The notes: generated by a model from the sequence alone, not told the origin. Shown: positions 2,654-39,886, counted from the stretch's first letter. The stretch: DNA of 64,000 nt from a virus (IMGVR_UViG_2939521961_000018), one strand, 5' to 3'. Translations and numbers: made by a program.

Positions 2654-2859
2654 TATTTGCTCCTTATGAATGAGTTAGCGGTATAAATGAAAAAGCCGCG
2701 TCTCCCGGAGAAGACGCGGCCTGACAGATGAAATGAATGACGTTTATTGTCTGAGAAGCCCTCCACTGGTGAGCTGCGTATTTTCATGGAAGGAGTGAGG
2801 TAGCCTGAGTTTAACGGACACTCCTTCCTGAAATAGAATGGCATCAGAAGGAGCTAATA

Positions 2860-3162
2860 ATGAGCAGAAAAACCCAACGTTACTCTAAAGAGTTCAAAGC
2901 CGAAGCTGTCAGAACGGTTCTTGAAAATCAACTTTCGATCAGTGAAGGCGCTTCCCGATTATCTCTTCCTGAAGGCACTTTAGGACAATGGGTTACCGCC
3001 GCCAGAAAAGGGCTCGGTACTCCTGGTTCCCGCACGGTGGCTGAACTGGAATCTGAAATTCTGCAACTGCGTAAGGCGTTAAATGAAGCTCGCCTTGAGC
3101 GAGATATATTAAAAAAAGCAACAGCGTATTTTGCACAGGAGTCGCTGAAAAATACGCGTTAA
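2860..3162 (+). CDS. IS600 OrfA (HTH, leucine-zipper transposase N-terminal part)
   Basis: MSRKTQRYSKEFKAEAVRTVLEN typical IS3-family OrfA. Confidence 0.9.
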   Translation: MSRKTQRYSKEFKAEAVRTVLENQLSISEGASRLSLPEGTLGQWVTAARKGLGTPGSRTVAELESEILQLRKALNEARLERDILKKATAYFAQESLKNTR

Positions 3163-3197
3163 TCGAACAATGGCGACAACAATTTCCCATTGAAGCG

Positions 3198-4016
3198 ATG
3201 TGTCAGGTATTTGGTGTATCCAGGAGCGGTTATTACAACTGGGTACAGCATGAACCCTCAGACAGAAAACAAAGTGATGAGCGGCTAAAACTGGAGATTA
3301 AGGTGGCACATATCCGCACTCGCGAAACATATGGAACCCGGCGGCTCCAGACGGAGCTGGCAGAGAATGGCATCATCGTTGGTCGTGACCGACTGGCACG
3401 TCTTCGTAAGGAGCTAAGGCTACGCTGTAAGCAGAAACGCAAGTTCAGAGCGACTACGAACTCGAACCACAATCTGCCAGTTGCGCCAAATCTGCTGAAC
3501 CAGACGTTCGCTCCTACAGCACCAAATCAGGTCTGGGTGGCGGACCTGACGTATGTTGCCACACAGGAGGGATGGTTGTACCTCGCTGGCATCAAAGATG
3601 TTTATACGTGCGAAATTGTCGGCTACGCCATGGGAGAGCGCATGACAAAAGAGCTGACAGGTAAAGCTCTGTTTATGGCGCTCAGGAGCCAGCGCCCACC
3701 TGCCGGGCTAATCCACCACTCTGATCGAGGTTCACAGTACTGCGCATACGATTACCGGGTCATACAGGAGCAGTTTGGTCTGAAAACATCAATGTCGCGT
3801 AAAGGTAACTGTTACGACAACGCTCCGATGGAAAGCTTCTGGGGAACGCTGAAAAATGAGAGCCTGAGCCACTATCGTTTTAATAACCGGGATGAAGCCA
3901 TCTCAGTAATACGGGAATACATTGAGATTTTCTACAATCGTCAGCGTCGTCACTCTCGTCTGGGGAATATCTCCCCGGCAGCCTTCAGGGAAAAATATCA
4001 TCAGATGGCTGCTTAA
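3198..4016 (+). CDS. IS600 OrfB (DDE transposase catalytic part; made as OrfAB fusion by -1 frameshift)
   Basis: DDE integrase core (HSDRGSQY, CYDNAPMESFWGTLK); -1 frame relative to orfA. Confidence 0.9.
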   Translation: MCQVFGVSRSGYYNWVQHEPSDRKQSDERLKLEIKVAHIRTRETYGTRRLQTELAENGIIVGRDRLARLRKELRLRCKQKRKFRATTNSNHNLPVAPNLLNQTFAPTAPNQVWVADLTYVATQEGWLYLAGIKDVYTCEIVGYAMGERMTKELTGKALFMALRSQRPPAGLIHHSDRGSQYCAYDYRVIQEQFGLKTSMSRKGNCYDNAPMESFWGTLKNESLSHYRFNNRDEAISVIREYIEIFYNRQRRHSRLGNISPAAFREKYHQMAA

Positions 4017-4194
4017 AAAAAGAACAAATGGTAGTGTCCGCTATTGCCAGTACACCTCAGAGATCACCCAATATCCCCATCGGGATCGGGTAATAACTGG
4101 CCAGACTGTGATCAATTCAGATGCCATTTGGCAGTAAAAGGGTCTTCGGGCAATAAACGTGATGCACAACCCGGCATATCTGTTGATCCCTGAA

Positions 4195-25182: not shown

Positions 25183-25623
25183 TATAGCTGGTGACTCTTT
25201 TCGAAGAGCATCAAGGTAGTCAGCGTACCATTGCATCATTTCTCGTCTTCCTTCAAGGTAACGAGCATGGTTGTATGTACCACGAATGCTGTTTTTGTCC
25301 GTATGTGCAAGTTGCATTTCAATCCATGCACTATTGAATCCTTGCTCGTGTAGAACAGTACTCATTGTATGACGAAATCCATGCCCGGTAGCTTTTTTGT
25401 CATAGCCAATCTTCTTCAAAACCATATTGACGCTTGCATCGCTGATAGGCCTGTTAACATCATTTCTTCCGGCAAAGATGTATCTGTATCTTCCAGTCAG
25501 TTCTTTGAGGATTTGCAGAGACTGGATTGCCTGATCTGACAGAGGGACGATATGCTCCTTCCTCATTTTCATCCGGGTCGGAGGAACTTCCCATATCTTT
25601 TGGGTAAAATCGATCTCACACCA
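25183..25623 (-). pseudogene. P4-type tyrosine integrase, 3' fragment (C-terminal 147 codons) truncated by IS600
   Basis: Catalytic C-terminus HGFRHTMSTVLHEQGF...IRGTYNHARYLEGRREMMQWYADYLD; reading frame enters from the IS600 end at 25624. Confidence 0.8.
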
Positions 25624-25666
25624 TGAGGTGTACTGGCAATAGCGGACACTACCATTTGTTCTTTTT

Positions 25667-26485
25667 TTAAGCAGCCATCTGATGATATTTTTCCCTGAAG
25701 GCTGCCGGGGAGATATTCCCCAGACGAGAGTGACGACGCTGACGATTGTAGAAAATCTCAATGTATTCCCGTATTACTGAGATGGCTTCATCCCGGTTAT
25801 TAAAACGATAGTGGCTCAGGCTCTCATTTTTCAGCGTTCCCCAGAAGCTTTCCATCGGAGCGTTGTCGTAACAGTTACCTTTACGCGACATTGATGTTTT
25901 CAGACCAAACTGCTCCTGTATGACCCGGTAATCGTATGCGCAGTACTGTGAACCTCGATCAGAGTGGTGGATTAGCCCGGCAGGTGGGCGCTGGCTCCTG
26001 AGCGCCATAAACAGAGCTTTACCTGTCAGCTCTTTTGTCATGCGCTCTCCCATGGCGTAGCCGACAATTTCGCACGTATAAACATCTTTGATGCCAGCGA
26101 GGTACAACCATCCCTCCTGTGTGGCAACATACGTCAGGTCCGCCACCCAGACCTGATTTGGTGCTGTAGGAGCGAACGTCTGGTTCAGCAGATTTGGCGC
26201 AACTGGCAGATTGTGGTTCGAGTTCGTAGTCGCTCTGAACTTGCGTTTCTGCTTACAGCGTAGCCTTAGCTCCTTACGAAGACGTGCCAGTCGGTCACGA
26301 CCAACGATGATGCCATTCTCTGCCAGCTCCGTCTGGAGCCGCCGGGTTCCATATGTTTCGCGAGTGCGGATATGTGCCACCTTAATCTCCAGTTTTAGCC
26401 GCTCATCACTTTGTTTTCTGTCTGAGGGTTCATGCTGTACCCAGTTGTAATAACCGCTCCTGGATACACCAAATACCTGACACAT
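25667..26485 (-). CDS. IS600 OrfB
   Basis: Identical protein to 3198-4016. Confidence 0.9.
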   Translation of the reverse strand: MCQVFGVSRSGYYNWVQHEPSDRKQSDERLKLEIKVAHIRTRETYGTRRLQTELAENGIIVGRDRLARLRKELRLRCKQKRKFRATTNSNHNLPVAPNLLNQTFAPTAPNQVWVADLTYVATQEGWLYLAGIKDVYTCEIVGYAMGERMTKELTGKALFMALRSQRPPAGLIHHSDRGSQYCAYDYRVIQEQFGLKTSMSRKGNCYDNAPMESFWGTLKNESLSHYRFNNRDEAISVIREYIEIFYNRQRRHSRLGNISPAAFREKYHQMAA

Positions 26486-26520
26486 CGCTTCAATGGGAAA
26501 TTGTTGTCGCCATTGTTCGA

Positions 26521-26823
26521 TTAACGCGTATTTTTCAGCGACTCCTGTGCAAAATACGCTGTTGCTTTTTTTAATATATCTCGCTCAAGGCGAGCTTCAT
26601 TTAACGCCTTACGCAGTTGCAGAATTTCAGATTCCAGTTCAGCCACCGTGCGGGAACCAGGAGTACCGAGCCCTTTTCTGGCGGCGGTAACCCATTGTCC
26701 TAAAGTGCCTTCAGGAAGAGATAATCGGGAAGCGCCTTCACTGATCGAAAGTTGATTTTCAAGAACCGTTCTGACAGCTTCGGCTTTGAACTCTTTAGAG
26801 TAACGTTGGGTTTTTCTGCTCAT
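26521..26823 (-). CDS. IS600 OrfA
   Basis: Identical protein to 2860-3162. Confidence 0.9.
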   Translation of the reverse strand: MSRKTQRYSKEFKAEAVRTVLENQLSISEGASRLSLPEGTLGQWVTAARKGLGTPGSRTVAELESEILQLRKALNEARLERDILKKATAYFAQESLKNTR

Positions 26824-27306
26824 TATTAGCTCCTTCTGATGCCATTCTATTTCAGGAAGGAGTGTCCGTTAAACTCAGGCTACCTCATATCTCCTTCGTT
26901 ACCGATTAATTCTTTCATCTGACGAATGAATTCTTCGTCTGACCAGTTATCTGTGAAACTCATTTCCTGCGATACCACGGAAGGTTGATAGCTGATTTCA
27001 TCGCTTTATTTGCTTCAAGCCACATTTTTGAATCACCAATAAATCTGGCTATTACTGCTTTGTTTTGTGCCGCACGAAGCATCTGGTGATTAATGGCTAT
27101 TTCATTGCGCATAACGCCTCCAGTTGTTTCTTTGCTGCTCTAATTAATTGTTTAACTCGGCGTGATAATTCAGATTCGTGCGGGTAGAAAGCGGACATGA
27201 CGCCGCTACCCGCGAGCTGAAAGTGCATCATGGGTAACTCCTTATATTTGATTGCATAACGAAAACGCCTCGAGTGAAGCGTTATTGGTATGCGGTAAAG
27301 CCGCGC

Positions 27307-27672
27307 TTAGGCGGCTGATGTTTCTTCTTTCAGGCTTTCGAGATATTTACGTGGGTCGTCGTAACATTGGCATTCGCTGTACCAATCCACCCAGCGATCA
27401 GTAAGCCCCACCTCTGATAAATCTTCATCGGTAAGGCTCTCATCCCACATCTCAAGGCCGTTAGCATTGCAGTAATCAGGCTTGATGTTGTTGTCATACT
27501 GAAAGGCGTCATAATCAGCCAGTGCGCCCATCAGGCGAACACCCTCTTCAACACTTGCCACTTCTGCAATGAACGGTTTCATAGGTACTTGCGGGATATG
27601 CCAGACACGTAATTTCATATTTCCTCCGTCAAAAAAATCGCCCTCACATTGGAGGGCAAAGAAGATTTCCAA
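27307..27672 (-). CDS. Phage early-left hypothetical protein
   Basis: 121-aa ORF; likely true start at MKLRVWHIPQVPM (about 27618); acidic C-terminus. Confidence 0.45.
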   Translation of the reverse strand: MEIFFALQCEGDFFDGGNMKLRVWHIPQVPMKPFIAEVASVEEGVRLMGALADYDAFQYDNNIKPDYCNANGLEMWDESLTDEDLSEVGLTDRWVDWYSECQCYDDPRKYLESLKEETSAA

Positions 27673-27761
27673 TAATCAGAACAAGTCGGCTCCTGTTTAG
27701 TTACGAGCGACATTGCTCCGTGTATTCACTCGTTGGAATGAATACACAGTGCTTATTCGTA

Positions 27762-28232
27762 CTAATAAAATACCCAATTTTCTGTTTCTTGGTTGTGTCC
27801 AAAGTTATATTCAATATCTGGTGTTGATGTATCAATATTTTTCATCCCATCAACAAGAGTTGATACAACAGCCAAATCTTGTTTTATTCTCATTAAATGG
27901 TATTTCTTCCGGCGCAATAAACTTTCAATAGCAAGTTTCTTCGTTGGGAATGCAAAAGATCTTTCTGCATTTTTTGCTACTTTCTTAATTGCATATCTAT
28001 TTCTCTTTTGTTTCCATTCCTGTAACCACTGATTTGGTGCTGGTTTAAAATTAACAATCCAATGCGCAGGAACCAACCATGCATAATGCTCTGTCTGATG
28101 AAAAGCTATATATTGAAGTGCGAATATTTTGATTCCATCTTCTTCAACTGTCGCCTGGAATCTCCAGAAAACAGGCATTCCATCATGTTCAGTTTCTGAT
28201 TCAGGAAAAGGTACGCTCCATGATTTTGTCAT
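27762..28232 (-). CDS. Hypothetical protein, AT-rich moron candidate
   Basis: 156-aa ORF, AT-rich, divergent from the 28433 gene. Confidence 0.45.
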   Translation of the reverse strand: MTKSWSVPFPESETEHDGMPVFWRFQATVEEDGIKIFALQYIAFHQTEHYAWLVPAHWIVNFKPAPNQWLQEWKQKRNRYAIKKVAKNAERSFAFPTKKLAIESLLRRKKYHLMRIKQDLAVVSTLVDGMKNIDTSTPDIEYNFGHNQETENWVFY

Positions 28233-28432
28233 ATCTCACCTCAAATAAGTGGTTTGCTGTCTAATTTCATTTTCTGGCGACCAACACAAGTCACACCCAT
28301 TTCACTGCGTGGCTTGCGGTAGTAAAGATTGTGCCTGTCTTTTAACCACATCAGGCTCGGTGGTTCTCGTGTACCCCTACAGCGAGAAAAATAGTAAAAT
28401 CCTCTTACCCCTACAGTAAGAGAGTAATTTAT

Positions 28433-28927
28433 ATGGATGTGTTATCTGGTATAACTGCCGCGAAACAGGCTTATGATCTGCTGAAGACAATAAAAGAAAC
28501 CAGAGACGATGCTGTTATCGCTAAAGCTATTGGTGATCTACACCAAAGAATAACTGACTTACAGATGCTTAATGCGGAGCTCTCTGGCCTTTATCAGGCC
28601 GAGAAGGAGATCGCAATGAAGCTTCGAGATGAAAATAGAAAAATCAAGATGTTTGTTGTGCAAGCTGAGAATTATGAACTTCATACAACTGAAGGTGGTT
28701 CTGTCGTGTATCGACCTAAGAGTCATTCCGATCCTTCTATTCAGCAGCATAACCTTTGTGCACATTGCTTCGGCGAACATAAAATATCGATACTTCAACC
28801 AAGCACGGTTACTATAAAATCTAATGGGTTCTTTGTGCATTCATGTCCTCGCTGTAAGAATGAATACCGGATGTATAGAGCGCCAGACCCTAAGCCTGTA
28901 TATGTACCGCCGCTGACAAATTATTAA
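28433..28927 (+). CDS. Hypothetical protein with coiled-coil N-terminus and C-terminal Cys4 zinc-ribbon-like motif
   Basis: CAHCFGEH...HSCPRCKNEY; opposite strand to the early-left operon. Confidence 0.45.
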   Translation: MDVLSGITAAKQAYDLLKTIKETRDDAVIAKAIGDLHQRITDLQMLNAELSGLYQAEKEIAMKLRDENRKIKMFVVQAENYELHTTEGGSVVYRPKSHSDPSIQQHNLCAHCFGEHKISILQPSTVTIKSNGFFVHSCPRCKNEYRMYRAPDPKPVYVPPLTNY

Positions 28928-28957
28928 TTTTATTCCTGAAATGGCCTCTTCACCCCC

Positions 28958-29320
28958 TTACTTTGTCAGGGGGATATCTCCTTCAGTTTTGACCATTCGC
29001 CTTAATACTTTCCTTAAGTCGATGTAAAGTTGAAGGTCTCCATTTGCTGCGGCATCAGCCATTTTTTGCCTGACAAGCAGTAATGTTTCATACGGCTCAA
29101 TAAGAATATCGTCATGAGTAATTAGGTGAAGCGTTGCCGCATCAACTATTCCTAGAGCTGCGCCAAGTATCAAAAATTCCCTGCTATTTTTGTCGCATGA
29201 GGAGATAAGCGTATTTAGCGCATACCTAATATTCTTTATAGCTGTTGTTAATGCTGCAATTTCTTCTATGGCGTCTTCTCCAATGAGCTTTTTAAGCTCA
29301 TATTTTTCTTCCTGACCCAT
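28958..29320 (-). CDS. Phage early-left hypothetical protein
   Basis: ORF-track ORF 28958-29404 trimmed to MGQEEKYELKK so that it starts just after the N stop. Confidence 0.4.
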   Translation of the reverse strand: MGQEEKYELKKLIGEDAIEEIAALTTAIKNIRYALNTLISSCDKNSREFLILGAALGIVDAATLHLITHDDILIEPYETLLLVRQKMADAAANGDLQLYIDLRKVLRRMVKTEGDIPLTK

Positions 29321-29322
29321 AA

Positions 29323-29595
29323 TTACCTCGCCGTCAGTTGTTTTGATTTCCGGTAGCCTGCCGCGTAAATGGCTACGTTTGGCAGGCAAATACTTCCACT
29401 GCATTCATCTGCCTTCTTGCAGCGAAGGCTTCCGAGTGATGCTGCTTTATCTGCTCTGACGCAACCAGAGAGCTTTAGCGCAATTTTTCGTGCCAATCGC
29501 TGTTCTTGCATTGCCTGTTCACGTTGAGCCTGTCTGCGTGCTCTGCGGCGATTTCTGGCGTTATCGTCAGCCAGATATGTAATGACTACTGTCAT
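29323..29595 (-). CDS. N-type transcription antiterminator (P22 gp24-like)
   Basis: Arginine-rich motif NARNRRRARRQAQREQ near N-terminus; C-terminus LPNVAIYAAGYRKSKQLTAR matches recalled P22 gp24 end; lies between OL/PL and the early-left genes. Confidence 0.7.
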   Translation of the reverse strand: MTVVITYLADDNARNRRRARRQAQREQAMQEQRLARKIALKLSGCVRADKAASLGSLRCKKADECSGSICLPNVAIYAAGYRKSKQLTAR

Positions 29596-29702
29596 GTTGA
29601 CCTCCGATGATTGACTTTGGCGGTGACGCGCCGCGTGCTTATCTTCCGGTTGCCGTCTTGCAGCTGCACTTCACGTCACCCCAAAGCCAACTACTCTTTG
29701 GT

Positions 29703-29750
29703 TCCCGCATTTCGGCGGGACAATCCCATCAATGTTAAAGAGCCTGCCAA
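29703..29750 (-). promoter_or_regulatory. nutL (boxB hairpin plus boxA-like GCTCTTTAAC)
   Basis: boxB UCCCGCCGAAAUGCGGGA (minus-strand RNA), same hairpin as nutR; boxA-like element 20-30 nt on the promoter side. Confidence 0.5.
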
Positions 29751-29792
29751 TCTGTTCCGTTTGGCTTCCAGCGTCCTGCTGATGGCTTAAAG

Positions 29793-29875
29793 ATAACTTA
29801 GGTTATAGGTGTGGTCAATAACCTAATTTATATTTTATGGTGAATAGGTTATAAGTGATGGATAACAAAGGTATT
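29793..29875. promoter_or_regulatory. OL/PL operator region with repressor operators of form ATAAC-N4-GTTAT
   Basis: ATAACTTAGGTTAT (29793-29806), ATAACCTAATTTAT and GATAACAAAGGTAT; same motif as in OR. Confidence 0.5.
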
Positions 29876-29992
29876 TTATTTTTGTAAATGTTGCTGATTG
29901 ATTGGTGTTTGAGGGCTTGCGTGCGGGGTGAAGGTGTTACCTTTGGCTTGATGCTTGTCTATGATGAGGATGGTTGATTGGGTGGTGAACGG

Positions 29993-30030
29993 CAGGAAAA
30001 GAAAACCCGGCGCTGAGGCCGGGTGTTTTT
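29993..30030. terminator. Bidirectional rho-independent terminator ending the cI operon
   Basis: Hairpin CCCGGCGCTGAGGCCGGG flanked by an A-run on one side and TGTTTTT on the other. Confidence 0.5.
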
Positions 30031-30325
30031 AGTCTTTTCTTTTGCTTAGCATTTCGTCGATTTCTAAGTCAATACGATATTGATCTATTGCTTTTCTCTC
30101 GTTTGGGGTTGGTATTTTATACTGTTCAATTAGATCTGTTGTGTATTTTATTTCATCTAATGTGATTTTTATATCAGAGAGAATCTCTTTTATATCAATT
30201 ATATGCTCTTCTTCTTTTGCACGATTAGAGCTATGTTCAATCATTTGAGATAGCTTTTTACTAATGCTTAGCAAAACAAAAAGAATGATGACCAAAACAA
30301 CAACAAAAACTATCAGAAATTCCAT
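30029..30325 (-). CDS. Small single-pass membrane protein in the rex/sie position downstream of cI (superinfection-exclusion candidate)
   Basis: N-terminal TM FLIVFVVVLVIILFVLLSI, charged coiled-coil-like remainder; AT-rich; co-directional with cI. Confidence 0.5.
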   Translation of the reverse strand: MEFLIVFVVVLVIILFVLLSISKKLSQMIEHSSNRAKEEEHIIDIKEILSDIKITLDEIKYTTDLIEQYKIPTPNERKAIDQYRIDLEIDEMLSKRKD

Positions 30326-30365
30326 TATCCCTCCGCACTTCCGTAAGTCTTCTTCTGATTATCGG

Positions 30366-31070
30366 TTACCAACTATGAGACGACCAGAATACTCTGCCAA
30401 TAATCCTTACGGTTTCATGAAATTCATCTCTATCCATTACTTCATCCGGGTACTCTTCGCGATTTATTGATCTGATTATCACCGATGTAGGGGTGGCGAT
30501 TAATGTTTTTACTCGTAACAAATCAGACTGGCAAATAGCGTAGGTTTTACCATCTCTGATTGTGGTATCTTGCGTGTTAACACCAACAACATCGCCATCG
30601 TGAAGCGTTGGTTCCATGCTTTGCCCTACAACCCTAACTAGCTTGGCTGATCTTTCAGATACTCCCATCTTTTTCAGATAGTGCTTTCTGAAAACCAAAG
30701 AGAACTCCGATGATTCCTCTAGCTCGCAGCTACCGCTTCCAGCTGAAAGCGAAACGTTAAGAAGAGGCAACGCAACAAACTCGTCATCGTTTCTTTTAAT
30801 GTCTTCCCATACCACAGCTTTTAAAGATGAATCACGGACATTGGATGGTTCTTCATGTGCACCATCCCTCATTTCACCAATACCAGAACTAAGCCATTCA
30901 GGGCGCACTTTTAAAGCATTGGCTAATTCAACCATCTTGCGAGATCCGTTTGTTTTACCGGACGACATCTTCTGTATGGCTGGCTGAGATATTCCAACCA
31001 TGTCAGCAAGCTGTGATTGTGATACCCCTGCTGAGCTCATGGCTGCATTTAGTCTTTCTGCGAATGTTTT
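30366..31070 (-). CDS. cI: CI-type prophage repressor (HTH plus LexA-like S24 peptidase domain)
   Basis: HTH LADMVGISQPAIQKM; autocleavage Ser in VVGQSMEPTLHDGD; start taken at MKTFAERL so the ORF does not overlap OR. Confidence 0.8.
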   Translation of the reverse strand, partial: KTFAERLNAAMSSAGVSQSQLADMVGISQPAIQKMSSGKTNGSRKMVELANALKVRPEWLSSGIGEMRDGAHEEPSNVRDSSLKAVVWEDIKRNDDEFVALPLLNVSLSAGSGSCELEESSEFSLVFRKHYLKKMGVSERSAKLVRVVGQSMEPTLHDGDVVGVNTQDTTIRDGKTYAICQSDLLRVKTLIATPTSVIIRSINREEYPDEVMDRDEFHETVRIIGRVFWSSHSW

Positions 31071-31083
31071 CATACCCACAAAT

Positions 31084-31145
31084 CTATAACTACGGTTATC
31101 CAAAGTAAAATAACAAAGGTTATTGCTATTTTTTATAACTTGAGT
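31084..31145. promoter_or_regulatory. OR operators (three ATAAC-N4-GTTAT palindromes) with divergent PRM/PR
   Basis: ATAACTACGGTTAT 31084-31097, ATAACAAAGGTTAT 31107-31120, ATAACTTGAGTTAT 31132-31145, spaced 23-25 bp, between cI and cro. Confidence 0.6.
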
Positions 31146-31178
31146 TATCTTTGGTTATAAGTAATGACCACAAGAGGT

Positions 31179-31409
31179 ATGCTCATGAATTTAGTAATTC
31201 AACGAGCCTTGAAAATTGTCGGTAGCCAAAAGCGCCTTGCCGACAAGTGTGGTGTAACGCAGCCAGCAGTACACAAATGGCTGAAAGGCGGGTTGGTCTC
31301 TCCAGAGAAAGTTACCGCCATCGTTAACGCCACTGGAGGGCAGATCAAGGCTTACGAAATTCGCCCCGATTTGCCACACCTGTTTCCAAAACCGAATCAG
31401 GCAGCATAA
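31179..31409 (+). CDS. cro: Cro-like HTH repressor
   Basis: HTH QKRLADKCGVTQPAVHKWL; divergent from cI; start chosen after the AAGAGG RBS (ORF track starts at 31164). Confidence 0.6.
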   Translation: MLMNLVIQRALKIVGSQKRLADKCGVTQPAVHKWLKGGLVSPEKVTAIVNATGGQIKAYEIRPDLPHLFPKPNQAA

Positions 31410-31416
31410 GTAACAC

Positions 31417-31460
31417 CGCTCTTTAACAGTCATGGTCCTCATTCCCGCCGAAATGCGGGA
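31417..31460 (+). promoter_or_regulatory. nutR (boxA CGCTCTTTA plus boxB hairpin)
   Basis: CGCTCTTTA at about 31417-31425 and boxB UCCCGCCGAAAUGCGGGA at 31443-31460, between cro and cII. Confidence 0.55.
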
Positions 31461-31518
31461 ATACAACGCGCATAAGTTGATGCGCATAACTTCTTATTTG
31501 TTAAGGAAATACTTACAT

Positions 31519-31797
31519 ATGGAACTTACAAGTACTCGCAAGAAAGCGAATGCAATTACAAGCAACATCCTGAATCGAATTGCTGTACGTGGTCAGCGAA
31601 AGGTTGCTGATGCATTAGGGATCAATGAATCGCAAATTTCGCGATGGAAAGACAGCTTTATCCCAAAGATGGCCATGCTTCTGGCTGTGCTGGAGTGGGG
31701 TGTTGAAGACGAGGAATTAGCGGAGCTGGCAAAGAAAGTAGCCATGGTGCTGACAAAAGAAAAGCCTCAAGACTGCGGCAACAGTTTTGAGGCCTGA
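31519..31797 (+). CDS. cII: CII-like transcriptional activator
   Basis: ESQISRWKDSFIPKMAMLLAVLEWGVEDEELAELAKKVAMVLT resembles lambda CII; start at MELTSTRKK. Confidence 0.7.
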   Translation: MELTSTRKKANAITSNILNRIAVRGQRKVADALGINESQISRWKDSFIPKMAMLLAVLEWGVEDEELAELAKKVAMVLTKEKPQDCGNSFEA

Positions 31798-31980
31798 TTG
31801 TAGAAAGACTGTATCAATCCACAGGAGTAATTATGACAAAACGTCGTAAGAAATACCAGGAAAAAGAAGAGATTCGACACCCTGATTCACCTGAGGGATT
31901 AGTGGTAGCCGCAGCAAATAACAGGGCGTTCGCAGAGCGCCTTGTTGGTGTTTACAGACTAGCCAAAGCAGGAGTGAAAC

Positions 31981-32802
31981 ATGGGCGTCGTTAAGTTAGC
32001 TGATTACAGGCCTCAACTGGAGGTCGTGGAGCATCGCGTGGCAGATACCGAAGATGGTTTCATGCGCGTTGCTAACGAGATTATCGACAGTCTGCTGATG
32101 GCTGATTTAACCGTCCGGCAGATGAAGGTGATGCTCGCTATCATGCGCAAGACATACGGATTCAATAAGCCGATGGATCGACTCACAAACACGCAGATAG
32201 CAGCCATGACAGGTATTCATCACACTCATGTTTGCGCTGCCAAGCGCCAGCTTATTGAGCGTAAATTCCTCATTGCTGATGGCGTGAAAATCGGAGTGAA
32301 CAAGGTGGTTTCTCAGTGGATTAGCCAGGACAGCTTAACATTAGCTAAAACAGCTAATAAAACATTAGCCGAGTCGGCTAATGGGTATAAGCCAAGTCAG
32401 CTAAACACAAAAGACAATATACAAAAGACAATAAATACAAATACCCCCTTACCCCCTAACGGGGGCGGCGATGGGCAGGTTAAACCTGAACGTCGCAAGG
32501 CAGAACGAATCGACTACGAATCCTTCCTGAACGCCTACAACACCGAAGTCGGTGACAGACTTCCACACGCTGTTGCGGTCAACGAGAAACGAAAACGCCG
32601 CCTGAAGAAAATCATCCCGCAACTGAAAACGCCAAACGTGGACGGTTTCAGAGCGTATGTCAGGGCGTTTGTGCATCAGGCCAAGCCGTTTTACTTCGGA
32701 GACAACGACACGGGCTGGACGGCAGATTTTGATTACCTGCTGAGGGAAGACTCGTTAACGGGAGTTCGGGAAGGGAAGTTTGCAGACAGGGGGATTGCAT
32801 GA
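31981..32802 (+). CDS. O: Replication initiator O (lambda O family)
   Basis: N-terminal [33 protein letters not shown] resembles lambda O; iterons lie inside the gene. Confidence 0.8.
32331..32456 (+). other. Phage origin of replication: four TTAGC-N6-GCTAA iterons followed by an AT-rich tract
   Basis: TTAGCCAGGACAGCTTAA, TTAGCTAAAACAGCTAA, TTAGCCGAGTCGGCTAA, GCCAAGTCAGCTAA, then CACAAAAGACAATATACAAAAGACAATAAATACAAATAC. Confidence 0.55.
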
Positions 32803-34175
32803 GACAGGATATCGAAGCGAGCGTTATCGGTGGCTTGCTGATTGGTGGATTAACACCAACCGCCAGCGACGTTCTGGCAACGCTGGAGCCGGAAGCGTTT
32901 TCAATTCCGCTCTACCGGAAAGCCTTCGAAGTTATCCGTAAGCAGGCGAGAAACAGAAACCTAATCGACGCGCTGATGGTTGCCGAGGCGTGCGGAGAGG
33001 AGCATTTCACGTCAATCCTGATGACCAGCAAAAACTGCCCGAGTGCCGCAAACCTGAAGGGATATGCCGGAATGGTCGCGGATAACTATCACCGCCGTCT
33101 GGTGCTGGAAATCATGGACGAAATGCGTGAACCAATTCAGAGCGGAACCATCGATACATCGAGTCAGGCGATGGACGAGCTTGTAAAGCGTCTCTCAGCC
33201 ATCAGAAAGCCCCGTGACGAGGTTAAACCTGTACGGTTAGGGGAAATCATCACTGACTACACTGACACGCTTGACAGGCGTCTGAGGAACGGAGAAGAGT
33301 CAGATACCCTGAAGACCGGAATCGAAGAACTTGACGCCATCACCGGAGGGATGAACGCGGAAGACCTGGTGATTATCGCCGCTCGTCCTGGTATGGGGAA
33401 AACCGAACTGGCGCTGAAGATTGCCGAAGGTGTTGCAAGCCGCGTTATTCCTGGTTCTGACGTCCGGCGCGGAGTGTTGATTTTCTCGATGGAAATGAGC
33501 GCATTGCAGATTGCAGAGCGGAGCATTGCCAACGCCGGGAGGATGTCGGTTAGCGTACTGCGAAATCCTGCATCGATGGATGACGAAGGCTGGGCGCGTG
33601 TTGCTAACGGCATGAGTCAGCTTGCAGATTTGGATGTATGGGTAGTCGATGCCTCGCGGTTATCGGTAGAAGAAATTCGCTCAATCGCAGAGCGGAACAA
33701 ACAGGAAAATCCAAACCTGTCACTCATCATGGCGGATTATCTTGGCCTGATTGAGAAGCCGAAAGCAGACCGCAACGACCTCGCAATTGCTCACATCTCA
33801 GGAAGCCTGAAGGCGATGGCGAAAGACCTGAAAACGCCTGTTATCTCCCTAAGTCAGCTTTCGCGCGATGTTGAGAAGCGACCAAACAAACGCCCGACAA
33901 ACGCAGATTTGCGTGATTCAGGAAGCATTGAGCAGGACGCAGACTCAATCATCATGCTCTATCGGGAAGCGGTATATGACGAGAACAGTAGCGCCGCACC
34001 ATTTGCTGAAATCATTGTGACGAAAAACCGGTTTGGCCCACTTGGTACGGTTTACCAGCGGTTCTGTAACGGACACTTTGTTGCATGTGACCAGGATGAA
34101 GCCAGACAGATTTGCACAGCATCAAATGCACCTGCTTCGCGTGGCAGACGATATGCACAAGGGGCTGACGTATGA
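32799..34175 (+). CDS. DnaB-family replicative helicase (P22 gene 12-like)
   Basis: Walker [13 protein letters not shown], DnaB C-terminal motifs; overlaps the O stop. Confidence 0.8.
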
Positions 34176-34261
34176 CCATCTACATCACTGAGCTAATAAC
34201 AGGCCTGCTGGTAATCGCAGGCCTTTTTATTTGGGGGAGAGGGAATTGGAGGCTTTAAGAA

Positions 34262-34477
34262 ATGAGTACGATAGCTGAGCTTGTCAGGGCTAATTTTCGT
34301 GAAGAGTTGGTGCGTTGGTATCGGTATCGTTCATCGTCCAGTTTGCCGATTGATGAGTTGTATGAGCATTCACCTGCTGCACGACGCTATCCGCGTGACC
34401 GTGTCCTTCGACGGTTGTTCAAACTCAACAATGAGTTTCAGCGCAACAGAATAATCCGGAGTCTGGATTTAAAGTGA
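34262..34477 (+). CDS. Hypothetical small phage protein
   Basis: 71-aa ORF between helicase and nin region. Confidence 0.3.
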   Translation: MSTIAELVRANFREELVRWYRYRSSSSLPIDELYEHSPAARRYPRDRVLRRLFKLNNEFQRNRIIRSLDLK

Positions 34478-34481
34478 AGGA

Positions 34482-34673
34482 GTGAGCATGAGTCGAAGAA
34501 GTAGCTTTTTGGGGTTTGTAATATTCCTGTCCTGCACTGGTTACATCGTAATCTGGTCAATTTCGAACATTGACCGTGGCGGGGAATATCTCATTGTAAT
34601 GTTCTTTCCTTTGTTTCTTGGGTGGTACGCCGCAAGGTTGCTGGAAGAATGGGGTTACAGGCATAAAAAATAA
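34482..34673 (+). CDS. Hypothetical small membrane protein
   Basis: 63-aa ORF with two hydrophobic segments. Confidence 0.3.
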   Translation: MSMSRRSSFLGFVIFLSCTGYIVIWSISNIDRGGEYLIVMFFPLFLGWYAARLLEEWGYRHKK

Positions 34674-34930
34674 AGGAGTGTTCAGTGAAGCAAACCCTTT
34701 TTTATTGGATTAAGAGCGAGGGGTAAGTACCGATGGTAAATGCATTTATTTGTAGTTTATTTCTTGTCGCGATTTTTCATGGATTCCTTCTGATGATGAG
34801 TTTTGTTCTCTGGAATAATGGATATCGCATATTGGGAGTAGGTTTTGTTTTACGGTTTTCAGTTGTCTGCGCGTTGCTACCGATAATTATGGCGACTATC
34901 AAATATTATTGGTAACCCAAAAAATCATCG

Positions 34931-35299
34931 ATGGAGAGTGATATGGACGAATCAAGAAAGCAGTTTGAGGAATACGTTGCCAAAAAATTGAGATTACCAT
35001 TCGAGATGATAACCGAGGCAAGAAATGGTGATAGGTACTTCGCATTTTCAAGCATGGATATTCGTCACTCCTTAAATGAGTGGTGGACTTTATGGCAGGC
35101 ATCGCGAGCAGCTATTGAACTGGATATCGACTGGCCAGAATCGAATGACGACTTTTGGAAAGATGGTGAAGAAGGTGCTTATGCGATGGGTTATGAGGAT
35201 GGGCGTGACAAAACGGTAATTGCAGTAATGAAAGCTATCAGAGCCGCTGGAATTAAAGAGAAGAATTTCGATGAAGCAAACAATATTCCTCCGAACTAA
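34931..35299 (+). CDS. Hypothetical phage protein
   Basis: 122-aa ORF upstream of ninB. Confidence 0.4.
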   Translation: MESDMDESRKQFEEYVAKKLRLPFEMITEARNGDRYFAFSSMDIRHSLNEWWTLWQASRAAIELDIDWPESNDDFWKDGEEGAYAMGYEDGRDKTVIAVMKAIRAAGIKEKNFDEANNIPPN

Positions 35300-37871: not shown

Positions 37872-38491
37872 GACTCGAAAGCGTAGCTAAATTTCATTCG
37901 CCAAAAAGCCCGATGATGAGCGACTCACCACGGGCTACGGCTTCTGACTCTCTTTCCGGTACTGATGTGATGGCTGCTATGGGGATGGCGCAATCACAAG
38001 CCGGATTCGGAATGGCTGCATTCTGCGGTAAGCATGAACTCAGCCAGAACGACAAACAAAAGGCTATCAACTATCTGATGCAATTTGCACACAAGGTATC
38101 GGGGAAATACCGTGGCGTGGCAAAGCTTGAAGGAAATACTAAGGCAAAGGTACTGCAAGTGCTCGCAACATTCGCTTATGCGGATTATTGCCGTAGTGCC
38201 GCGACGCCGGGCGCAAGATGCAGAGATTGTCACGGTACAGGCCGTGCGGTTGATATAGCAAAAACAGAGCAGTGGGGGAGAGTTGTTGAGAAAGAGTGCG
38301 GAAGATGCAAAGGCGTCGGCTATTCAAGGATGCCAGCAAGTGCCGCATATCGCGCTGTAACGATGCTAATCCCAAACCTTACTCAACCCACCTGGTCACG
38401 CACTGTTAAGCCGCTGTATGACGCTCTGGTGGTGCAATGCCACAAGGAAGAGTCAATCGCAGACAACATTTTGAACGCGGTCACACGTTAG
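37868..38491 (+). CDS. Q: Late-gene antiterminator Q (lambda Q type)
   Basis: 207 aa [29 protein letters not shown]...[12 protein letters not shown]...[10 protein letters not shown], near-identical to recalled lambda Q. Confidence 0.9.
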
Positions 38492-38533
38492 CAGCATGAT
38501 TGCCACGGATGGCAACATATTAACGGCATGATA

Positions 38534-38562
38534 TTGACTTATTGAATAAAGTTGGGTAAATT
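38534..38562 (+). promoter_or_regulatory. Late promoter PR' (with qut region)
   Basis: TTGACT-N17-TAAATT in TTGACTTATTGAATAAAGTTGGGTAAATTTGAC, as in lambda. Confidence 0.65.
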
Positions 38563-38702
38563 TGACCCAACGATGGGTTAATTCGCTCGTTGTGGTATTG
38601 AGATAAAAAGAGGCGGCGCTTACTACCGATTCCGCCCAGTTGGTCACTTCGACGTATCGTCTGGAACTCCAACCATCGCAGGCTGAGAGGTCTGCAAAAT
38701 GC

Positions 38703-38762
38703 AATCCCGAAACAGTTCGCAGGTAATAGTTAGAGCCTGCATAACGGTTTCGGGATTTTTTA
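38703..38762 (+). terminator. tR' terminator (end of the 6S-type short late transcript)
   Basis: ATCCCGAAAC...GTTTCGGGAT hairpin followed by TTTTTTAT, as in lambda. Confidence 0.6.
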
Positions 38763-38771
38763 TATCTGTGT

Positions 38772-39126
38772 AACAGGTAAGAGCATTCTCCCTTATGGGG
38801 CTTGGCTTAAATGCACCGAGTGCTCTTATCGTTGTGGCAGCACAACGATAGTTTTCGTCAGAGTTGGCGACTTTGCGGTTTTTTAGAAACTGACCACAAA
38901 GATAAATGCAAACGATGATGTTGTTCTGATGGCGGCGTAATAGCCTGTAAGTCAGCAAGGTCTTCCGACTCCTTGTAAACAAATTCGGCGCACTGGCCCG
39001 GTGTGATTAATAATGGGCACACAACAGGTAAGAGCATTAAAGAACTGGCAAAGAGCTTAACGGTCTGCGAAAGCATTTCTTAGTGGCACAACTGGCCGGT
39101 ACAACTGAGTGCTCTTTCCGGTGTGG
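38772..39126 (+). repeat. Two diverged copies of a stem-loop module (AACAGGTAAGAGCATT ... GAGTGCTCTT[AT][TC]CG[TG]TGTGG) in the late leader
   Basis: Module A 38772-38837, module B 39023-39126; in each TAAGAGCA pairs with TGCTCTTA. Confidence 0.4.
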
Positions 39127-39562
39127 TGAATGCGCAGGCTGATGCGCGCAGGAGAGCTTCGGAAGAACAAGGTGCCTGTATACAAGCCGGAGATCAGCGC
39201 CGGCCACCACAGCCAAATCCACCCAGAGCAAAACCGTTGTTCATCCTTACCATTCACTCAGTATTTTGGGCTACACCATCAGCCCATTTTTTAAAGCGTA
39301 CTTCCACCAAGAACCAGACCTAACCAACTCATTGCTGACACTCTGTGGATACGGTTGTCTAGTACGCTTTAAAAAAGAAAACCCAGCATCAATGGCTGGG
39401 CTTCGTGATATGAGCGGCATGTATTGTTGGCGCAATCCACGCCTGATTTGCTCATGAATGCGGTCACGAACAAACCCGTTACAAATCAACCGTAACCCGG
39501 ATTTGTTCAAGCGACCATATCCATAATTCCTAATTTGAACAGATCCCCTTCTGGGGTAAGAC

Positions 39563-39886
39563 ATGAAGATGCCAGAAAAACATGACCTGTTAGCCGCTAT
39601 TCTCGCGGCAAAGGAACAAGGCATCGGGGCAATCCTTGCGTTTGCAATGGCGTACCTTCGCGGCAGATATAATGGCGGTGCGTTTACAAAAACAGTAATC
39701 GACGCAACGATGTGTGCCATTATCGCCTGGTTCATTCGTGACCTTCTCGACTTCGCCGGACTAAGTAGCAATCTCGCTTATATAACGAGCGTGTTCATCG
39801 GCTACATCGGTACTGACTCGATTGGTTCGCTTATCAAACGCTTCGCTGCTAAAAAAGCCGGAGTAGAAGATGGTGGAAATCAATAA
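39563..39886 (+). CDS. S: Holin S (lambda S107/S105 type)
   Basis: [31 protein letters not shown], dual-start Met1/Met3. Confidence 0.9.

Follow-up and report, generated by a model that had tools for sequence, protein, structure and literature searches.

A small membrane protein gene behind the repressor gene of a lambdoid prophage, a candidate phage-exclusion factor

Within the window, i.e., the whole stretch of 64,000 nucleotides of viral DNA analysed here (IMGVR_UViG_2939521961_000018), a lambdoid prophage carries, behind its cI-type repressor gene, a 98-aa open reading frame that is a real accessory gene. The ORF belongs to phrog_18389 and to the positional class of cargo carried in the slot between cI and N. 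We infer an anti-phage role, co-transcription with the repressor and a membrane topology for its product, and the reading that we hold most likely from the anatomy of the locus, with a rough probability of 45%, is that of a lysogen-expressed, repressor-cotranscribed, membrane-tethered anti-phage factor acting by exclusion or abortive infection. We consider an exclusion factor the best single reading because this anatomy goes together with the precedent set by other occupants of the slot and by known inner-membrane excluders.

Results and discussion

A constrained gene behind the repressor

The ORF lies on the minus strand at 30029-30325, starts with ATG and encodes a protein identical to RefSeq WP_000394868.1 (annotated as "hypothetical protein"), in which an N-terminal transmembrane (TM) helix (aa 3-21), a variable linker (aa ~27-42) and a conserved hairpin (aa 44-97) can be told apart. 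A Shine-Dalgarno (SD) sequence, GGAGGG at 30329-30334 (minus strand; GGAGG at 30334-30330), is placed 3-4 nt 5' of the ATG, and its CGGAG core is kept in an alignment of the Citrobacter-type cassettes described below. Upstream, on the same strand and with a gap of 40 nt from stop to start, is the gene for the cI-type repressor (30366-31073 with the RefSeq start, 235 aa; the longest ORF runs from a TTG at 31103), in which Pfam detects HTH_3 (E 8.5e-07) and Peptidase_S24 (E 1.6e-17) domains. GC content is 29.3% in the ORF, 43.1% in cI and 47.3% in the window, with a trough of 27-29% at 30050-30275. A sequence-only reading of this DNA had described an AT-rich ORF of 98 aa following cI on the same strand, and its coordinates, length, composition and place behind cI all hold.

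In comparison with the 77%-identical Citrobacter-type genes, overall dN/dS is 0.15 at a dS of 0.84, and many of the differences are synonymous third-position changes. By region, the ratio is 0.067 for aa 44-98, 0.22 for the linker and 0.28 for the TM segment, and residues 44-94 are nearly invariant across homologues of 72-99% identity. A chance ORF in the AT-rich spacer between cI and the terminator, an idea that the scarcity of stop codons in some frames of such sequence and the very small, unannotated family would favour, is therefore for all practical purposes excluded by the dN/dS and the synonymous changes; it is also at odds with the length, SD sequence and intrinsic terminator, which recur in lineages down to 35% identity, and with a profile search of 1.84 billion representatives, which returned 14 clusters, all of 94-126 aa and with one and the same layout.

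Position within the immunity region

The order on the minus strand is oR, cI, ORF, terminator, oL/pL and N, i.e., the layout of the lambda immunity region. The oR operator cluster (31085-31160; ATAAC-N4-GGTTAT-type palindromes of families D1, D3 and D11 and pairs I2, I5 and I6) is situated between cI and a divergent gene for a cro-type regulator (31185-31409, plus strand; YdaS, HTH_3 and P22_Cro matches), which is followed on the plus strand by cII, also diverging from oR. At the other end, 3' of the terminator, an oL operator cluster with a pL-like promoter (29790-29875; minus-strand promoter with TTGACC at 29818-29813, a 17 nt spacer and TATCTT at 29795-29790) precedes the gene for an N-type antiterminator (29323-29595, minus strand; PF25694 N_peptide, E 1e-15; phrog_271), the first of the leftward early operon, on the far side of the slot. 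The ATAAC-N4-GGTTAT repeats are common to oL and oR and bracket the ORF, which thus lies inside the immunity region. Judged by this arrangement, the ORF occupies the rexAB position, as had been proposed from the sequence, since related copies sit behind unrelated repressors that include, in locus L003, a true homologue of lambda cI.

Closure of the ORF by a strong bidirectional terminator, another point of the sequence-only reading, is borne out by a terminator scan, which called an intrinsic terminator on both strands at 29994-30031 (stem-loop 30005-30024, CCCGGC-N6-GCCGGG core, T-runs on both strands). The stem has 7 bp, 6 of them GC pairs, and the folding z-scores against shuffled sequence are -2.7 and -2.6 in the two orientations. 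Stem and T-run are kept in L003, L005 and L007 while the loop varies, and terminators are also found 3' of the gene in L039, L041 and L042. As an analogue of t-imm, this element would end the cI-ORF operon, and it would also halt antisense transcription coming rightward. The same scan found no terminator between cI and the ORF, and the only promoter-like match near the ORF (30400-30372, 9/12) is inside cI, outside the mobile unit described below and within chance expectation.

Two further genes of the leftward pL operon region were noted. One, at 27307-27672 (minus strand), is homologous to P22 gene 17 (PF17420 GP17, E 3e-53); to it RefSeq gives the name "superinfection exclusion protein" and Pfam "superinfection exclusion gene product 17". 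A 164-aa ORF with CxxC...CxxC motifs (28433-28927, plus strand; phrog_1244, function unannotated) is on the opposite strand within this operon, convergent with N, and may be another independently expressed accessory gene.

A promoterless cassette that moves between immunity types

DNA homology (81%) to Citrobacter and metagenome loci does not extend beyond 30002-30335 (minus strand), a mobile cassette made up of ribosome-binding site (RBS), ORF and terminator. Homology to L003, L005 and L007 begins 10 nt 5' of the ATG, at the RBS, and stops at the T-run of the terminator, and the flanks are unrelated except for a nutL-like patch of 74 nt further on. The repressors of these three loci, a lambda cI homologue in L003 and hybrids with a different N-terminal domain in L005 and L007, are unrelated to that of the window. 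The closest relatives of the window ORF are those behind lambda-type repressors. It has 78% identity to the one of Citrobacter, but the corresponding repressors have no BLAST similarity, and the nearest relative of the window repressor (L039, 38% identity) is accompanied by an ORF that is only 46% identical to ours. Given that ORF and repressor similarities are incongruent, the cassette has moved between immunity types, and co-evolution with one particular repressor is ruled out.

The slot had also been called a classic site for morons, a label that fits the ORF in part. Two properties of classical morons in the Hendrix/Juhala sense are present, namely a distinct, foreign base composition (29% GC vs 43% in cI and 47% in the window) and a terminator of its own (stem 30005-30024, conserved within the cassette). 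The third, a promoter of its own, is absent from the cassette, and since the mobile unit starts at the RBS we do not consider it a classical moron. Being promoterless and directly behind the repressor gene, the cassette is most likely co-transcribed with cI, and as it most likely depends on the repressor promoters, the protein should be made whenever cI is made. Going by the anatomy, transcription would come from the PRM counterpart in the lysogen and from the PRE counterpart during establishment, and the cI-ORF transcript would end at the terminator of the cassette, before oL/pL.

Occurrence of the gene family

A search for homologues in the same slot of other lambdoid prophages, as suggested by the sequence-only reading, was successful: in all the lambdoid loci recovered (more than 40, with at least seven repressor types and identities down to 35%) the gene is directly behind the repressor. 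A scripted analysis of 40 loci placed it, without exception, 1-40 nt 3' of an ORF of 233-245 aa on the same strand. These upstream ORFs come to 13 distinct sequences, all CI-type repressors (HTH + S24), and L042, L053 and L054 add more repressor types; the start codon in L041 is 1 nt past the repressor stop. Within one immunity type the slot is a cargo hotspot, as behind cI genes of 93-99% identity in other E. coli it holds DUF3024 or other unrecognised ORFs instead, and behind a 79%-identical cI there is nothing on that strand. Examples of such cargo in E. coli prophages, each behind a 93-99% identical cI, are a DUF3024 protein (L050:2122-2463) and a pair of ORFs of 120 and 42 aa (L052:1749-2255).

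In a search of 5.8 billion proteins, homologues from E. coli and Citrobacter fell into 11 clusters (90% identity), whose full-length members are 72-99% identical to the query. The gene is present in 99 of the 5426 complete E. coli genomes, and the cI type (at >=99% identity) is found in 105 genomes. Most carriers are O26:H11-like STEC, the others being ExPEC, ETEC and commensal strains. Two scans of 185,579 species-representative genomes (GTDB set) found no relatives, so that the known range is limited to E. coli, Citrobacter, Yersinia frederiksenii and unassigned metagenome contigs.

The most distant members (P0021, P0022, and P0023) do not adjoin a repressor. At L044:4001-4342, L045:1229-1570 and L047:1376-1756 the motif IKYVTD..EKYKLP is kept with no repressor upstream, and the contexts are, one each, an integrase-flanked island, a place after a SHOCT-domain protein (which resembles a lipoprotein by its N-terminal sequence) and a place after a sigma-54-dependent response regulator. 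The last of these points to a broader role of the fold in the cell. In E. coli 3CM (L048), the ORF is interrupted within its 5' third by an IS3-family element (at a place corresponding to about 30230-30270 of the window), which gives rise to a truncated 75-aa variant ("P0010") devoid of the TM segment. Citrobacter-type loci have an opposite-strand ORF of 68-74 aa right after the terminator of the cassette (L003:6324-6530 and equivalents in L005, L006, and L007:6324-6548), an ORF that Pfam does not match and that is missing from the window.

The immunity region of the window is shared with an Stx1a-converting phage and with a prophage of another strain. In E. coli strain H19, a prophage matches positions 26887-35125 with 99.99% identity, and the Stx1a-converting phage Stx1a_10051 (LC744178.1) matches 26887-34245, likewise with 99.99% identity. 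The possibility that the window is phage H-19B itself was rejected, as only the immunity region is common to it, the H19 prophage and LC744178.1, and the window prophage is truncated by IS600. Three copies of this element are present (2796-4059, 25616-26889, and 46726-47989), and the one at 25616-26889 replaces ~6.1 kb of the otherwise 100%-identical E. coli CFSAN027346, a segment with the 3' part of an integrase pseudogene, torI/xis, ea genes, anti-RecBCD and the 5' part of erf. The window prophage has thus lost the int-to-erf stretch of its left arm and retains an intact cI-ORF operon. A second feature that sets it apart is that it appears to be without stx, because in an identical genome the stretch from the Q antiterminator to the holin gene (~38491-39564) has no annotated CDS.

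Predicted structure at the membrane

The protein has one hydrophobic stretch, residues 3-21 (FLIVFVVVLVIILFVLLSI), which is extremely hydrophobic (mean Kyte-Doolittle 3.67) and falls within an AlphaFold2 helix, in agreement with the single TM segment proposed earlier. All 17 aligned family members have zero K/R before this segment and 1-4 K/R in the 15 residues that follow it. By the positive-inside rule, this pattern predicts an uncleaved anchor with the N-terminus outside and the C-terminal ~75 residues in the cytoplasm, which is the outcome of the topology prediction that the sequence-only reading had called for. A cleaved signal peptide of a secreted protein was rejected, given that there is no positively charged n-region and that the K/R residues come after the TM segment.

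The AlphaFold2 model (7 sequences, mean pLDDT 81) has helices at 2-38, 45-68 and 74-97, with low confidence in the linker at 31-40. A family-wide motif, IKYTTDxIEKYKLPxxxERKxIDQIRIDxEID, extends from the end of helix 2, through a turn with a Pro residue, over helix 3, and Y69, P72, D81 and E88 are invariant in all members. Since conservation is concentrated in this motif and extends family-wide to only two positions of the TM segment, the charged hairpin is probably the functional surface and the TM segment its anchor.

That the protein is not recognisable, as had been stated, proved correct: its only family match is phrog_18389 (residues 1-98 on 98/98 profile positions, E 6.4e-62), which has no annotated function. 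Neither the window protein nor the 17 family members match a Pfam family, and NCBIfam has no informative match to the window protein. In PADLOC-DB 2.0 there is no significant match (the best, ZorB at E 0.017, covers the TM segment only), nor any for P0019 and P0021. The sequence profile matches only designed coiled coils in the PDB, by composition, and Foldseek returned zero matches in PDB and BFVD. Two sub-threshold hits, the phi29 p16.7-like phrog_6682 (E 0.088) and DUF5385 (E 0.014), were rejected, as TM and coiled-coil composition explains them. We found no paper naming WP_000394868 or phrog_18389.

Precedents for a role in exclusion

The interval between cI and N is a mosaic hotspot for accessory genes cotranscribed with the repressor, e.g., lambda rexAB, 933W stk, 434 hex and BTP1 bstA, whose products exclude other phages or abort their infection (PMC3564112, PMC8585504, PMC7067206); where PMC8585504 and PMC7067206 cite a source for the hotspot, it is attributed to Degnan et al. 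2007. The closest positional parallel is lambda, in which the PRM-cI-rexA-rexB operon runs to t-imm with a matching slot and strand logic (3' of cI, ahead of oL/pL and N, and closed by a terminator), and in a Citrobacter prophage with a lambda cI homologue a gene of the window type is found at the very place of rexAB. Expression in the lysogen would likewise be expected for the window ORF. The likeness is nevertheless one of position and transcription logic only: rexAB encodes a 279-aa soluble sensor and a 4-TM channel, in contrast to one 98-aa single-TM protein here, and no sequence similarity was seen with Pfam, PHROG or PADLOC. Similarly, 434 Hex, 933W Stk and BTP1 BstA are, like our ORF, encoded immediately 3' of the repressor, and they are cotranscribed with it or highly expressed in lysogens and confer heterologous exclusion or abortive infection (PMC3564112, PMC8585504, PMC7067206). 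All three, however, are soluble, differ in fold (a tyrosine kinase, a KilA-N-type protein and the product of a 158-codon ORF overlapping cI) and have no N-terminal membrane anchor. Stk and BstA have no similarity to the window protein in Pfam, PHROGs and PADLOC, and 434 Hex was compared by position alone (PMC3564112).

Precedents for the membrane location come from elsewhere in phage genomes. HK97 gp15 and P22 SieA are inner-membrane proteins that act alone and block genome entry (PMC3594210, PMC11436027). The window protein is most like gp15, a YebO-like moron product, by its size, by its predicted membrane location and because it seems to stem from a wider family of small bacterial proteins. 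Both genes are AT-rich and horizontally acquired, have their own terminator and encode a lone small inner-membrane protein (in our case by prediction), and both have remote relatives in non-prophage bacterial contexts (PMC3594210). They differ in that gp15 belongs to the tail operon and has a promoter of its own, while the promoterless window cassette would ride on the repressor transcript, and there is no sequence similarity, YebO being without a Pfam match in the window protein and the 17 family members. P22 SieA and T4 Imm and Sp are membrane-located, single-gene exclusion factors of prophages or phages that act at the envelope (PMC11436027, PMC10883804). SieA resembles the window protein in size and architecture, but these proteins have no sequence similarity to it and other genome positions, and the conserved domain of the window protein is predicted to be cytoplasmic.

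We propose that the first ~21 residues anchor a single-pass protein in the inner membrane, N-terminus outside, and tether the conserved acidic two-helix hairpin to the cytoplasmic face, where it probably binds a partner. As the anchor evolves freely, the hairpin, and not a pore, is likely the functional part. The mechanism that we favour is that the protein interferes, at the inner membrane, with the entry of the genome of an incoming phage or with an early step of that phage that takes place at the membrane; a trigger of abortive infection would be the second option. Selection acts on the hairpin and not on the TM helix, and we therefore prefer such interference to a depolarising abortive-infection effector. 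Several observations weigh against an exclusion factor. For the blocking of an ejection apparatus in the periplasm, a conserved domain in the cytoplasm, as predicted, is a less obvious fit; the most distant members are away from repressors, one of them following the sigma-54 response regulator, the gene is as rare as the genome scans above indicate, and strain 3CM tolerates the IS3 insertion in the ORF.

Alternative functions

The first alternative is a factor of lysogenic conversion that has no part in phage defence, i.e., a membrane-tethered adaptor modulating a host inner-membrane protein (e.g., a sensor kinase, transporter, protease or division protein) and thereby changing physiology or stress tolerance, in the manner of the E. 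coli small membrane proteins MgrB, SafA, AcrZ and PspB. A free-evolving anchor joined to a tightly constrained cytoplasmic hairpin fits a binding adaptor well, as do the distant homologues outside prophage repressor operons (again including the one after the response regulator) and the lack of a conserved partner gene beside the ORF. We nevertheless consider it unlikely, as every lambdoid copy of the gene lies in the repressor operon slot, where the genes that have been characterised act, without exception, on phages or the switch (PMC3564112, PMC8585504), and as Pfam and NCBIfam reveal no similarity to any known small-protein regulator.

Somewhat less probable is that the protein modulates the lysis-lysogeny switch or prophage induction, by which it could influence spontaneous induction in this immunity type. 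Two genes of the slot are able to act in this way: 434 Hex dampens RecA-stimulated repressor cleavage (PMC3564112), and lambda RexA is reported to bias the switch toward lytic growth (bioRxiv 10.1101/2021.04.19.439022). The obligate linkage to LexA-like self-cleaving repressors of at least seven types would also be well explained. However, the cassette passes from one repressor to another, unrelated one without any trace of co-evolution, so the target would have to be generic, e.g., RecA; a membrane tether is not an obvious asset for acting on a DNA-bound repressor, and the distant members are not beside repressors. Of the same rather low standing, in our estimate, is an unrecognised kind of single-gene membrane-tethered effector, a passenger of CI-type repressor operons only, whose hairpin would sense or block a step common to many phages (a new mechanism of exclusion or abortive infection) or tune RecA-dependent induction in this immunity type and so affect the release of toxin phages.

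It seems improbable that the protein is a membrane-damaging effector of abortive infection or a toxin (holin- or type-I-toxin-like), with a TM segment that oligomerises on a trigger sensed by the hairpin and depolarises the cell, as proposed for RexB. The extreme hydrophobicity of the TM segment, the rexAB slot with RexB as its membrane effector (PMC8585504) and a profile whose only matches are designed, coiled-coil-like proteins, as self-association would allow, would all agree with this. Against it, the TM segment is the less constrained part of the protein, with its two positions conserved family-wide, and constitutive expression with cI would need a single polypeptide to control its toxicity tightly. 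Type I toxins, moreover, are under ~60 aa, mostly hydrophobic and paired with an antisense RNA, while this protein has 98 aa with a large, charged domain of 75 aa, and at the locus there is no Rfam match and no antisense RNA.

We give still less credence to a helper of the establishment phase, produced in a burst with cI from the CII-dependent promoter and acting at the membrane, e.g., on FtsH/HflKC, so that CII is stabilised, much as by a tethered CIII. The anatomy would put the gene on the same transcript as cI, which would be made from the establishment promoter too, and the FtsH/HflKC complex is at the cytoplasmic face of the membrane, where the hairpin is predicted to be. There is, however, no similarity to CIII in Pfam or PHROGs, related prophages keep a separate CIII gene, and close relatives of the same cI carry other cargo in place of the gene, which indicates that it is dispensable for lysogeny.

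Conclusions

To a specialist, a small unrecognised ORF in the slot between cI and N is unsurprising, and if its product is a routine accessory protein it will be one more hypothetical gene in a known hotspot. This slot has, on the other hand, repeatedly yielded mechanistically new anti-phage systems, i.e., Rex, Stk and BstA, and what adds interest here is the strict linkage to repressor operons over at least seven immunity types, the clean edges of the cassette and the very strong constraint on the hairpin. The family is compact (a single gene of 98 aa) and has spread over at least seven immunity types, and the cassette of 334 bp makes it a cheap and well-defined experimental target. The immunity region that carries it is also that of a Stx1a-converting phage and of many O26:H11 EHEC genomes, and if an effect on superinfection or induction is true, the gene would bear on the ecology of toxin phages.
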